64,000 nt of DNA from the NCBI GenBank assembly GCA_965242855.1, contig OZ251509.1, forward strand, positions 126,869-190,868, written 5' to 3'. A model generated the notes under the pieces. It was not told where the DNA came from. It was given only the letters and a program-made list of their open reading frames with translations, and searched no databases. Of the stretch, positions 1,792 to 6,989 are shown in pieces. Source of the DNA: Alphaproteobacteria bacterium. GTDB lineage: Bacteria > Pseudomonadota > Alphaproteobacteria > UBA828. Position 1 is the stretch's first letter; each line of letters begins with the position of its first letter. A program made the position numbers and the translations under genes.

Positions 1792-1824
1792 CCGCTATTC
1801 TTTGGGGATTATACGCCTGACTAG

Positions 1825-2672
1825 GTCATGTACCCATAAAGATGGTATAGTTTCCCATCGGCATGGGGAAGTTGCGGAGGGAGGGAGTTTGGAATGGCAC
1901 GTTTTGATCTGACGGATGAGGAGTGGTCGGTGATCGCGCCGCTGCTTCCCAACAAGCCGCGCGGGGTGCCACGTGTCGATGATCGGCGGGTTCTGAACGG
2001 GATTTTTTACATTCTGCGCACGGGTTCTCCGTGGCGCGACCTGCCGGGGCGCTACGGCCCGTATACGACGGTGTACAACCGCTACAACCGCTGGGCCAAA
2101 CAGGGGGTGTGGCTGCGCGTCTTCGAGGCGTTGCGCGCCCAGGCGCCGGAGGCGCTTCATCTCATCGACACTTCGATCGTGCGCGCCCATCAACACGCGG
2201 CGGGCGGAAAAAAGGGGGCGCGGATCACGCCATCGGTCGTTCTCGTGGCGGACTGAGCACCAAGGTTCACGTCGTGGTCGATAGCCGCGGCCTGCCGGTC
2301 AAGTTCTTGCTCACCCCCGGTCAAGCCTCCGACAAGGGAAGCGTTGCCGACCTGCTGGCCGGCCTCGACCCGGCGCAGGACACGGTCTGCGACCGCAGCT
2401 ACGACGCCAGGGCGATCCGCGATCTGATCGCCAAGCATGGCTCCAGGCCCCATATCCCGACCCAGAAGAACCGCAAGGTCCGGTACAGCGTCGATCCCGC
2501 GCTCTATCGCCAACGCAATCTGGTCGAGCGGTTCTTCAACAAACTCAAACACTTCCGAGGCATCGCCACCCGCTACCACAAGCTCACCAGGAACTTCCTC
2601 GCCGCAATCGCTCTCGCCGCAATCCGTATCCATATCAAATATAATGAGTCCACGGCCTAGCCAAATCTTCTT
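1825..2672 (+). mobile_element. IS5-family insertion sequence, IS427 group (approx 0.85 kb); ends approximate
   Basis: Contains orfA/orfB transposase with A6G slippery site; flanked by CTAG tetranucleotides at 1821-1824 and about 2670-2673 (IS427-group elements target CTAG-like sites); imperfect terminal IRs (ctaggtcatgtacccat / rc ctaggccgtggactcat). Confidence 0.8.
1894..2660 (+). CDS. IS5-family (IS427-group) DDE transposase, orfA (1894-2256) fused to orfB (frame +2, to 2660) by programmed -1 ribosomal frameshift
   Basis: orfA MARFDLTDEEWSVIAPLLP…HTH; orfB …DDE_Tnp_1 C-terminal (…RNLVERFFNKLKHFRGIATRYHKL…); slippery heptamer gcggAAAAAAGgggg at about 2205-2215 in the overlap. Confidence 0.85.
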
Positions 2673-3062
2673 GAAGTGAGCGCCGGGGTTGCCAAGGCCG
2701 CCGATCGTGATATCCTGCAAGGGTTCGTCAAGGAGCGCGTGGCGGTGAGGGCCACGGTCTGCACGGACGATCCGGCGGCCTGCAAGGGGATGGCGGACAC
2801 GCGCCACGAGGCGGTCAACCATTCGGTTGGCGAATACGCTCGCGGCATGGCGCACACGAATGGAATGGAGTCGCTCTGGCCCATGTTCAAGCGCGCCTGC
2901 CACGGCACGTTCCATCACCTGTCCGGGAAACACCCGAACCACCATGCCCGAGAGTTCGTCGGGCGGCACAACGTCCGCAATCTCGATACCATCGCGCAAA
3001 TGTCCACACTGGCGCGGGGCATGGTGGGGAAGCGGCTGCAGTGCAGGGAGTTGGTGGCATGA
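2673..3062 (+). pseudogene. IS1595-family (ISXO2-like) transposase, C-terminal ~128 aa fragment; N-terminus missing
   Basis: …HTNGMESLWPMFKRACHGTFHHLSGKHPNHHAREFVGRHNVRNLDTIAQM… matches conserved C-terminus of IS1595/ISXO2-like DDE transposases; begins directly at the IS5 right end, with no room for the ~200 aa N-terminal part. Confidence 0.75.
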
Positions 3063-3772
3063 GCGACTCGACTCTCGACGAGATTCTTGAAGACGGTCGC
3101 AAGGAAAGCCCACAACAACGTTCGGGAAGTGGCGCACAATACAATCCCATTAGCAGCGTTTGGGAGGGAAGCGATGGGGAACTTCTCGAACAGATGCTGA
3201 GGTTTTATGCATCGATCCCACCGGACCCTATTCTGGACTCCACCTATAACACAGGGCGATTCTGGAAGAACTCAAACCGGCGTATCGTCTCAATGGACAT
3301 AGATCCAAAGTACAAGACGATGATCGTCGGTGACAATCGGGAAATGGTGGGCATTCCTACGTCTACTTTTGGAACCGTTGTTTATGATCCGCCTCACGTG
3401 GGACCGCAAGGACGCGACAAGAGCAGAAAGAGGTTTGATGAGGATTTCGGGGCGACGGTTGAGTGTGGCAAGAGCCAAGGATGGAGCCTCAGCTATCTGT
3501 ATCCTCCTTTCCTAAAGCAGGCGAAAAGAGTGTTGAAGCCTCGCGGTCTTCTGTTGGCGAAAATCACAGATATGGTGAACTGTCATAGATCGAAATGGGC
3601 GCACTGTGATTTCATGAAAATGGCCGAAGAATCCGGCTTCACCGTTTGTGATTTGATCGTCAAGATTCGAAGTGGACCGATGGTCTCAACGAAATGGAAA
3701 ACCGCCCATCATGCCAGAAAGCGACATTGTTTCTGGATCATTTGTCGCAACGGACGCAGCTGTGAGAGATGA
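3059..3772 (+). CDS. Putative DNA methyltransferase (small gamma-class N6A/N4C-type; motif IV DPPH)
   Basis: …ILDSTYNTGRFW… (weak motif I) about 50 aa before …TVVYDPPHVG… (D/N-PP-Y/H catalytic motif) and …FLKQAKRVLKPRGLLLAKITD… (typical RVLKpgG post-catalytic motif); lower GC than host; immediately upstream of a GIY-YIG nuclease gene. Start taken at MSDSTL (M7 of ORF 3041..3772). Confidence 0.55.
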   Translation: MSDSTLDEILEDGRKESPQQRSGSGAQYNPISSVWEGSDGELLEQMLRFYASIPPDPILDSTYNTGRFWKNSNRRIVSMDIDPKYKTMIVGDNREMVGIPTSTFGTVVYDPPHVGPQGRDKSRKRFDEDFGATVECGKSQGWSLSYLYPPFLKQAKRVLKPRGLLLAKITDMVNCHRSKWAHCDFMKMAEESGFTVCDLIVKIRSGPMVSTKWKTAHHARKRHCFWIICRNGRSCER

Positions 3773-3775
3773 TCT

Positions 3776-4255
3776 GTGCGGAGCTATGATCTGCTTAGCG
3801 TGGATGAGCTCGGGCGCAACGCAGCGCGGGCACTGATGGAGCATCCCCCGAACGATTTGCCGCCGAAAGAATCGTTTGGGGGAGGTGGCGTCTACACGCT
3901 GCACTACGTTGGCTCATTTTACGCTTATACTGGCATGAGCGATGAAGTGCCGATCTACGTTGGCAAGGCCGATCTGCCAGGAAAGCGTCAAGGGCGGACA
4001 AGGACGCGCCACCAGACCCCGGCGCTTTATCGTCGATTGGTGAAGCACGCCGAGTCGCTTGATAGCGCACAGAATCTGCACCTCCACGACTTTCGGTGCA
4101 GATGGCTGGTGCGGGACGCCGTTTGGATCGGTCTGACGGAACAGGTCTTGATCGCAGAATACAGCCCGCTTTGGAATGCCGCCGCCGACATAGCGGCCGG
4201 GATCGAGAAACATCGGGCAGGAAGAAATCGTCATGCGCAAAAAGGCGCTGGCTAG
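3776..4255 (+). CDS. Putative GIY-YIG family type II restriction endonuclease (Eco29kI/Hpy188I-like), 159 aa, GTG start
   Basis: GVYTLHY…(17 aa)…IYVGKA = GIY…YIG spacing; downstream Arg cluster (RQGRTRTRHQ), His91, Glu128, Asn134 in positions expected for GIY-YIG catalytic residues; 4-nt spacing after the MTase gene; stop codon overlaps the right TIR. Confidence 0.5.
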   Translation: MRSYDLLSVDELGRNAARALMEHPPNDLPPKESFGGGGVYTLHYVGSFYAYTGMSDEVPIYVGKADLPGKRQGRTRTRHQTPALYRRLVKHAESLDSAQNLHLHDFRCRWLVRDAVWIGLTEQVLIAEYSPLWNAAADIAAGIEKHRAGRNRHAQKGAG

Positions 4256-4297
4256 TTAGACGTATAATCCCCTTACCTTTCGGTGCCGGATCTGCTT

Positions 4298-4326
4298 CAC
4301 GCCGCGGCGGCCGCCGTGGCTTTTTT
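4298..4326 (+). terminator. Rho-independent terminator-like hairpin plus T6 (probable original hisM terminator, now displaced about 2.5 kb by the inserted element)
   Basis: GC-rich imperfect palindrome gccgcggcggccgccgtggc followed by tttttt (4321-4326). Confidence 0.45.
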
Positions 4327-4338
4327 CAGGGGCGGCGG

Positions 4339-5960
<1,622 letters not shown>

Positions 5961-5964
<4 letters not shown>

Positions 5965-6989
5965 CGCCCCGTCAGCTTGCGCGGGTCGAAGGCGTCGCGC
6001 ACGGCCTCGCCCACGAAGATCAGCAGGCTCAGCATCAATGCCAGGACGACGAAGCCCGCGATGCCGAGCCAGGGGGCCTGCAGGTTGGCCTTGCCTTGCC
6101 GCAGCAGCTCGCCCAGCGAAGGCTCCCCCGGCGGCAGGCCGAAGCCCAGGAAGTCGAGCGAGGTGAGCGAGGTGATCGCACCCACCAGGATGAAGGGCAG
6201 GAAGGTGATGGCGGAGACCATCGCGTTGGGCAGCCCGTGGCGCAGGATGATCGCCGTGTTGCCGACGCCCAGCGCCCGCGCCGCGCGGATGTAGTCGAAG
6301 TTGCGCACCCGCAGGAACTCCGCGCGCACCACCCCCACCAGGGCCATCCAGCTGAACAGCAGCAGGATCGTGAGCAGCACCCAGAACCCCGGCTCCACGA
6401 TGCTGGAGAGGATGATCAGGATGAACAGCTGCGGCAGGCCGGACCACACCTCGATGAAGCGCTGGAAGGCGAGATCGATCCAGCCGCCGAAGAACCCCTG
6501 CACCGCCGCCGCCGCGATGCCGACGATGGAGGCGAGAAAGGTGAGGGCGAGGCCGAACAGCACGGAGAGCCGGAAGCCGTAGATCACGCGGGCGAGCACG
6601 TCCCGCCCCTGGTCGTCGGTCCCGAGCCAGTTGTCGGCGGAAGGCGGGGCCGGCGCCGGCACCGGCAGGTCGTAATTGATCGTCCGATAGCCGTAGGGGA
6701 CGAGCGGCCACACCATCCACCCCTTCTCGGCGATGAGATCGGCCACGTAAGGATCGCGGTAGTCGGCTTCCGTCTCGAAGTCGCCGCCGAACTCCGTCTC
6801 CGCGTATTCGAAGAGGATGGGGAAGTAGAGCGTCCCGTCGTACTCCATGACGATGGGCCGGTCGTTGGCGACGAATTCCGCGAACAGCGTGAACAGGAAG
6901 AGCCCGAGGAAGAGCCAGAAGGACACGTGACCCCGCCTGTTGGCGCGGAAATTATGCAGCCTGCGCCGCGCGAGGGGGGACAGCGCCAC
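5961..6989 (-). CDS. yejE: Peptide ABC transporter permease YejE
   Basis: 342 aa; N-terminal MALSPLARRRLHNFRANRRGHVSFWLF… typical of YejE/OppC-like permeases; operon position. Confidence 0.85.

Follow-up and report, generated by a model that had tools for sequence, protein, structure and literature searches.

Restriction-modification (R-M) systems have long been argued to be selfish mobile genes, but there are few clear examples of an autonomous insertion sequence (IS) that demonstrably transposes with a complete R-M operon as its cargo; the Eco29kI system is plasmid-borne. The characterised restriction endonucleases (REases) of the Eco29kI family, namely Eco29kI, Cfr42I and R.DraR1, all cut CCGC/GG (PMC4081073, PMC10855626), and a REBASE survey counted 310 CCGCGG systems, all with 5-methylcytosine (m5C), as against three putative ones with N4-methylcytosine (m4C) (PMC10855626). 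Among the small amino-methyltransferases with gamma motif order, M.NruI and M.Sbo13I make up a subgroup of their own (Zhu et al., PMC2890505), and M.Sbo13I is probably an N4-cytosine enzyme (PMC2890505). Here, we describe a locus that brings these kinds of enzyme together, in a 64,000-nt stretch of the alphaproteobacterial contig OZ251509.1 (the whole stretch is referred to as the window), where a methyltransferase (MTase) gene (3059-3772) is followed by a gene for an Eco29kI-type GIY-YIG nuclease (3776-4255). With a probability of roughly 80%, positions 1804-4272 are a decayed transposon of the IS1595 family whose cargo is a type II R-M operon, the MTase being its intact, solitary survivor and the nuclease being defective.

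The window element and its mobile relatives

The element is bounded by inverted repeats (IRs). The left repeat (IRL) opens with the 21 nt GGGGATTATACGCCTGACTAG (1804-1824, plus strand) and continues at 2661 past an IS5-type insertion, and the right repeat (IRR), GGGGATTATACGTCTAACTAGCC (4250-4272, minus strand), overlaps the stop codon of the nuclease gene and shows 0 mismatches to the repeat pattern. A pattern search gave matches at 1804-1826 (+) and 4250-4272 (-), with 0 expected in shuffled sequences, and by hand reading the IRL, rejoined across the IS5 insert, is identical to the IRR in 22 of 24 positions. IRs of this type are also present in L001 and L048 (L numbers denote loci that encode relatives of the MTase), to whose IRRs that of the window is homologous, and we take its start, GGGGATTATA, to resemble the ISNwi1 group. 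The flanking sequences, TATTCTTT (1796-1803) and TTACCTTT (4273-4280), share five of eight bases and may represent a degenerate 8-bp target duplication. The element is located between the stop codon of an ABC-permease operon on the plus strand (1791) and a terminator-like hairpin (4301-4320), and its G+C content of 48-60%, compared with about 70% in the flanks, points to acquisition. There is no second copy of it in the 64-kb window.

Upstream of the MTase gene lies a remnant of an IS1595-family transposase gene (2676-3062, plus strand), which retains the C-terminal 128 codons and has lost the Zn-ribbon together with the N-terminal portion of the DDE domain; it aligns to positions 59-153 of the 153 in the Pfam profile DDE_Tnp_IS1595 (E 2e-15) and to positions 119-215 of the 215 in NCBIfam transpos_IS1595. 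Intact relatives are 315-324 aa long and contain both IS1595 domains, so that about 590 bp, or some two thirds of the gene, are gone in the window. The TGA of the remnant overlaps the ATG of the MTase gene (ATGA, 3059-3062), and the same overlap is seen in L095. With an IS5-family element lodged in the IRL and the loss of about two thirds of the transposase gene, the transposon is dead and the window copy is a defective derivative of an IS1595-family element.

The relatives show what the unit looks like when complete, namely IRL, transposase gene, MTase gene with its start overlapping the transposase stop, Eco29kI-family nuclease gene, a small open reading frame (ORF) and IRR. In the closest relatives of the MTase, found in five different genomic places, these genes encode a 315-aa transposase, the MTase (again with the ATGA overlap), a 184-aa RE_Eco29kI protein and a 53-aa product, the transposase carrying Zn-ribbon and DDE_Tnp_IS1595 domains. 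The family is mobile: L048, L050 and L052, which lie in one metagenome-assembled genome (MAG) of Thalassobaculaceae, are 2564-bp units that are 100% identical, with 29-nt IRs, and each is flanked by a different perfect 8-bp duplication. Altogether, perfect 8-bp target duplications flank ten insertions that arose independently and belong to four IR lineages (L003, L027, L038, L040, L048, L050, L052, L095/L098, L096 and L099), and the IRs are 28-29 nt long in L048, L003, L027, L038 and L095. L001 is a unit of IRL, MTase gene, nuclease gene and IRR from which the transposase gene is absent. In L048, L050 and L052 the nuclease gene contains three stop codons, plus a frameshift read from the sequence; as these copies are identical and moved recently, transposition does not depend on the nuclease, which is evidence against a role for it in homing or transposition.

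The coupling of the two cargo genes was assessed in 80 genomic loci encoding a close relative of the MTase. An Eco29kI-family gene or its remnant lies directly downstream of the MTase gene in 68 of them, either co-directional with a gap of a few nucleotides or convergent, and by a crude count the nuclease gene is intact in about 32 loci or more, frameshifted or truncated in about 25 or more, and absent from 12. A transposase gene or fragment is directly upstream in 20 of the 80, so about three quarters are MTase-nuclease pairs with no adjacent transposase. These counts indicate that the module is real and recurrent, and that the nuclease often decays while the MTase is kept. A preliminary description of the window, made from its letters alone, had proposed a compact type II R-M system at this place; the pair it recognised is thus genuine, whereas its working state is not supported, as the nuclease lacks 41 residues that all other relatives examined retain. 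This internal deletion, the transposon setting and the transposase remnant at 2676-3062 had escaped that description.

Several further observations concern the structure of these elements. Contig OY729512.2, from the Thalassobaculaceae MAG, holds at least eight element copies in two sub-lineages (L033-L035, L038, L040, L048, L050, L052): one has an intact transposase gene and a broken nuclease gene, its copies being 100% identical, and in the other both genes are frameshifted and the copies are 95-99% identical; every copy has an intact MTase. The fourth small ORF of the intact relatives is conserved, encodes 50-72 aa with the motif YQPSKAELEE...TPEE, and follows the nuclease gene, overlapping its stop codon (L095:4769-4930; L048:about 6260-6474; L001:about 6297-6449). 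It has no Pfam match and is absent from both the window and P0271, the nearest relative of the nuclease. The lineage of L095:2473-5804, which also comprises L096, L098 and L099, is 3.3 kb long and has an extra internal IRL-like copy at 4939 and about 870 bp of additional sequence before the true IRR, including a 52-aa ORF on the minus strand.

The IS5-family insertion sequence within the IRL measures 832 bp (1825-2656, plus strand), with CTAG duplicated at 1821-1824 and 2657-2660. Its ends were placed by hand from this duplication and from the resumption of the IRL at 2661; an automatic inverted-repeat search of the insert gave no clear repeats. Pfam identifies orfA (1894-2256, DUF4096, E 2.5e-31) and the DDE frame of orfB (2031-2660, DDE_Tnp_1, E 1.9e-18), both on the plus strand. 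The insert is apparently complete and occurs once in the 64-kb window, and its two reading frames overlap near an A-rich run, a possible frameshift site. Just beyond the IRR, the hairpin at 4301-4320 (plus strand) is strong and terminator-like, with a stem of 8 bp (7 G-C) followed by T6, and looks like the original terminator of the ABC-permease operon, now split off by the 2.47-kb insertion.

The methyltransferase and the nuclease

The gene at 3059-3772 (plus strand, ATG start) is intact and encodes a protein of 237 aa, one residue fewer than the preliminary description had given, which is assigned to the small gamma-type, M.NruI/M.Sbo13I-like DNA amino-MTases. It has a class-I fold of S-adenosylmethionine (SAM)-dependent methyltransferases (Rossmann) and the gamma order of motifs (X-I-II-III before the catalytic IV-VIII), in agreement with the gamma class proposed earlier. 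The motifs that had been noticed by eye are likewise in place, with motif I, ILDSTYNTGRFW, at residues 58-69, D80 of motif II, the DPPH of motif IV at 110-113 (nt 3386-3397) and RVLKPRG at 157-163. Searches with the protein gave noise only in NCBIfam, no match in a sequence search of the PDB and only marginal matches in PADLOC. Yet its family is large, and a chance origin of the motifs is far from what is observed: 856 homologues were found, the 120 best listed all being 70-90% identical to the query, and a search of 1.8 billion cluster representatives added 1192 remoter relatives. In a 51-sequence alignment D60, P111 and P112 never vary, and D80, D110 and H113 hardly do. Of these 51 members, 19 match Pfam N6_N4_Mtase, and the family profile matches Mbo45V, TaqI and other DNA MTases.

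The nearest described enzyme is that of pSB13, a 5.4-kb plasmid of Shigella boydii, which we infer to be M.Sbo13I from its host, plasmid size and C-R/M layout (PMC2890505). It is related to the window protein over the full length (24% identity, BLASTP E 2e-17 over 240 aa), with a profile comparison by hhalign giving a probability of 99.7% and E 3.9e-26. A search of plasmids with the MTase returned distant relatives only, at 22-26% identity. The genomes that bear the MTase are labelled Alphaproteobacteria, Dehalococcoidia, Acidobacteriota, Planctomycetota, Rhodothermales, Binatia and Cyanobacteria, and its identity of at least 73% across the phyla of L001-L080 implies extensive recent horizontal spread. 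Many host names of these loci suggest symbionts of sponges or marine hosts (Ca. Poriferihabitaceae, Ca. Synechococcus spongiarum, bins of Thalassobaculaceae and Paracoccaceae).

The MTase is under strong purifying selection, with a ratio of nonsynonymous to synonymous substitution rates (dN/dS) of 0.076 against L001 at dS 0.45, and the window protein retains every one of the ninety-odd positions that are invariant in a sample of 26 sequences. Because it adjoins apparently intact Eco29kI-type nucleases in at least 30 loci, an active, protecting MTase would be required there. Taken together with published systems, MTases of this family regularly accompany restriction nucleases, which represent three different folds or families (PMC2890505). 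At L091:3001-4462, the gene of a relative with 50% identity (P0127) faces, in convergent orientation, one with a weak match to the SmaI restriction-enzyme family, which suggests that the MTase family partners several families of REases cutting GC-rich hexamers. Remoter relatives are located in phage-like gene strings, and these, together with the SmaI-like neighbour, indicate that the family supplies both R-M partners and orphan MTases. Five contigs of IMG/VR classed as viral (L086-L090) also encode relatives, at 67-77% identity; L089 has a convergent Eco29kI-type gene, and in L090 an IS1595-type transposase gene precedes the MTase gene.

The gene at 3776-4255 (plus strand, GTG start) encodes 159 aa and is a member of the RE_Eco29kI family, with a score of 108 bits to Pfam PF09517 against a cut-off of 30.8 (E 5.2e-31), E 2.7e-19 to the PDB structure of Eco29kI (3mx1) and E 7e-27 to the type II REase models of PADLOC (REase_II); NCBIfam has no match to it. 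The GVY...YVG spacing and the Arg, His, Glu and Asn residues on which the preliminary description had based its GIY-YIG assignment proved correct: GVY is at residues 38-40 and IYVGK at 60-64, and in a HMMER alignment Y40, Y61, R87, H91, E122 and N134 coincide with Y49, Y76, R104, H108, E142 and N154 of Eco29kI, all of which are required for cleavage according to mutagenesis (PMC1952068). Readings of the protein as a homing-type, UvrC-type or toxin nuclease were rejected, as Eco29kI is the only match in both structure and sequence. The homing-type and toxin readings had been offered for the event that the MTase was not functional; the situation is the reverse, in that the MTase is intact and selected and the nuclease has decayed.

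Directly after the catalytic N134 (nt 4177/4178), the gene has an in-frame internal deletion of 123 bp, or 41 codons, which is evident against its closest relatives L001 (196 aa) and P0271 (200 aa; 92% identity in the remaining sequence) and is found in no other of 31 aligned sequences. The missing block, V-x-V-D-G-F-G-N-N-D-P-G-K-G-R-x-N-Q-R-R-S-Q-W-D-T-L-H-P-G-R..., with the pattern GFG..PG.GR..S.WD.LHPGR, is the second most conserved of the Eco29kI-type family and holds G139, R149, Q152, S155, W157, D158, G163 and R164, none of which varies in 50 close relatives. Among the 120 best homologues listed, 116 have 184-224 aa and four are shorter (155-178 aa). Even minimal convergent versions of 150-163 aa keep the block; their sequences stop right after it, so they lack the C-terminal helix instead, unlike the window protein. 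An AlphaFold model of a full-length relative (overall predicted local confidence, pLDDT, 85; predicted template-modelling score, pTM, 0.81) has a pLDDT of 83-94 through the block, and its PDB matches are Eco29kI structures only, superposed end to end over about 190-205 columns at a template-modelling (TM) score of about 0.8 and 37-39% identity. The model thus predicts a structured block that would be part of the Eco29kI fold, and the family as a whole is of the REase type rather than a UvrC-like or homing one. As the 41 lost residues hold a block conserved throughout the family, the window nuclease is a family member by descent that is most likely defective, and restriction is most probably abolished.

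Alternative readings, mechanism and significance

Some observations weigh against the reading of the locus as a dead transposon with a surviving MTase. The MTase reaches only 19.8 bits with Pfam N6_N4_Mtase, below the cut-off of 26.7, its motif I lacks the canonical G-x-G (Y-N-T-G-R), and its motif IV is DPPH rather than DPPY. The target duplication is imperfect. The loss of function of the nuclease is read from conservation and not from known contacts, and its dN/dS against L001, still at 0.2, leaves room for a recent deletion or for some remaining role of the shortened product. The depletion of CCGCGG described below does not single out a recognition site. The five matching flank bases are consistent with an old, decayed insertion, and the Y-N-T-G-R of the MTase aligns with the G-G-G loop of M.Sbo13I, and its DPPH with DPPY. 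DPPH and Y-N-x-G-R are common to the window clade, and G-x-G is present in remoter members of the profile family; judged from these alignments, the weak motif I appears to be a clade-specific variant and not an absence of the motif.

That the locus is a complete, working compact R-M system, with a naturally short but active nuclease protected by the upstream MTase, is unlikely. All six catalytic residues are kept, the frame is open to the stop codon with a C-terminal tail that matches the relatives, the dN/dS of 0.2 would fit a functional enzyme, and short convergent family members (150-163 aa) do exist; these, however, preserve the GFG..PG.GR..S.W block and lose the C-terminal helix instead, the 41-aa gap is unique among the aligned sequences, a length below 184 aa is shared by only four of the 120 best homologues listed, and the lost block is predicted to be structured and to belong to the Eco29kI fold. 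Moreover, the remainder of the window element is visibly decaying, and the same fate of the nuclease, disrupted in about 25 and absent from 12 of the 80 loci, is common elsewhere. It is more doubtful still that the 237-aa protein is something other than a DNA MTase, for example a SAM-fold protein that is inactive or whose target is RNA or protein, with the adjacency to the nuclease having another meaning such as that of an antitoxin-like inhibitor; this would be hard to reconcile with the full-length homology to M.Sbo13I, a cloned and protective type II MTase (PMC2890505), with the invariant (D)PP(H/Y) tetrapeptide of amino-MTases, the G-x-G at the same position in other members of the wider family, the 19 of 51 members that match N6_N4_Mtase, the profile matches to Mbo45V, TaqI and other DNA MTases, and the steady linkage to restriction nucleases of three folds or families, and we consider it scarcely credible.

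A service of both proteins to the transposon itself, either by homing-like cutting of empty targets or by control of transposition through the MTase, as Dam regulates the transposition of IS10, is very unlikely as well. It would account for the translational packing of the genes behind the transposase in intact elements (ATGA overlaps), for the MTase being far more conserved than transposase or nuclease, and for its persistence where the nuclease decays. On the other hand, L048, L050 and L052 transposed recently with a broken nuclease gene, about three quarters of the 80 loci are MTase-nuclease pairs without a transposase gene directly upstream, the IRs of the four lineages have no GC-rich palindrome in common at which a CCGCGG-type MTase could place its mark, and the nuclease models over its full length onto a bona fide type IIP REase. 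Relatives of the MTase are also paired with conventional REases, of the NruI/Sbo13I and SmaI-like types (PMC2890505).

With the locus read as a decayed R-M transposon, the intact element would work as follows. The transposase moves the whole unit in one piece, generating 8-bp target duplications. Methylation by the MTase would shield the host genome where a dimer of the GIY-YIG nuclease cuts, and post-segregational killing due to the R-M cargo would help to maintain the element, with the host gaining a restriction barrier. By analogy with the characterised family members, the recognition site of the clade is predicted to be CCGCGG and the mark m4C; as CCGCGG contains no adenine, the mark of an amino-MTase at this site would be N4-methylcytosine, as in the DraI system. 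The composition of the elements gives no further guidance. In a maximal-order Markov test of 78 MTase-nuclease modules, every 6-bp palindrome had an observed/expected ratio below 1, which is uninformative because the 78 sequences are homologous. In seven independent elements, CCGCGG is depleted relative to dinucleotide shuffles (3 observed vs 15.3 expected, z -3.3), and CGATCG, CCCGGG, GGGCCC and CGCGCG are depleted equally, so that the site is not identified in this way.

Since only the MTase is intact in the window, the expected phenotype is that of an orphan methylase. For this genome the consequence is modest, as it probably has an orphan MTase and an extra methylated motif and not an active restriction barrier; its own copy of the element is a relic. 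The family as a whole is of wider interest. With its identical multi-copy elements and ten target duplications, it is one of the cases in which an autonomous IS carries a complete R-M operon, and it displays every stage of decay, from intact elements through those with a dead nuclease and transposase-less units to MTase-only remnants. It is also a candidate source of m4C-type CCGCGG systems, its GIY-YIG nuclease being of the Eco29kI type and its MTase from a subgroup of small gamma amino-MTases that has received little study. Rather tentatively, the clade may be viewed as a self-mobilising, self-retaining R-M unit of 2.5-3.3 kb spread over many bacterial phyla, whose constrained MTase could serve the element in a second role; this might be the pre-protection of new hosts or the tuning of transposition, and would explain why the MTase outlives nuclease and transposase, as in the window.

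Comparison with known systems

On the nuclease side, the closest systems are Eco29kI and Cfr42I (CCGC/GG), with which the window nuclease shares the Pfam family PF09517, the six catalytic residues and a gene adjoining that of its cognate MTase, and on whose structure, in the case of Eco29kI, a full-length relative superposes as described above. The partner in the window clade, however, is a small amino-MTase in place of their C5-MTase, the module rides in a transposon, the CCGCGG specificity of the clade is a prediction only, and the window nuclease lacks 41 residues. The DraI system of Deinococcus radiodurans (R.DraR1 and M.DraR1, CCGCGG, m4C) likewise combines an Eco29kI-like GIY-YIG REase with protection by an amino-MTase (PMC10855626) and is proposed, by analogy, as a functional model for the pair of the window clade. 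M.DraR1, though, has been assigned to the alpha class and lies ten ORFs from R.DraR1 (PMC10855626), unlike the MTase of the window clade, which is gamma-type and whose gene abuts that of the nuclease (the two are 3 nt apart in the window, at 3772 and 3776). The preliminary description had called the pairing uncharacterised; this stands for the M.NruI/M.Sbo13I-like subgroup, but not for Eco29kI-like REases and m4C amino-MTases in general, for which DraI is a precedent (PMC10855626).

With M.NruI and M.Sbo13I (TCGCGA), the MTase has in common full-length homology, the order of motifs, a similar size (237 vs 253-267 aa) and the lack of a separate large target-recognition domain (PMC2890505). It differs in having DPPH for DPPY and N-x-G for G-x-G, and in the partner nuclease, which is a GIY-YIG enzyme of the Eco29kI family in the window clade and a PD-(D/E)XK enzyme in NruI and Sbo13I; the window clade is, in addition, much more conserved and transposon-borne.

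The vehicle resembles the 'transporter ISs' of the IS1595 family, such as tISCpe8 and MTnSag1, in its Zn-ribbon and DDE transposase, IRs of about 25-29 bp, 8-bp target duplications and passenger genes between the IRs (PMC5704250), but its cargo is a type II R-M operon placed tightly behind the transposase gene instead of lincomycin-resistance or mobilisation genes. Among mobile R-M units, those of Xanthomonas oryzae also have R-M genes between imperfect terminal IRs and an 8-bp duplication (Furuta et al., 2010, PMC2853133), an arrangement comparable to that of L001. These units have no transposase, and their mobility was inferred from one empty site (PMC2853133), whereas in the window family some copies are autonomous, each with a transposase of its own, several are identical, and ten insertions arose independently.

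All components are therefore of known kinds, namely the Eco29kI family, the M.NruI/M.Sbo13I subgroup, the IS1595 transporter ISs and transposon-like R-M units. What appears to be new, in a comparison that drew on sources other than REBASE and ISfinder, is the pairing of an Eco29kI-type nuclease with a small gamma amino-MTase and, on comparison outside ISfinder, the fusion of this operon behind an IS1595 transposase with evidence of recent transposition. The wide spread of the module, with many host names of sponge and marine symbionts, appears to be new as well.

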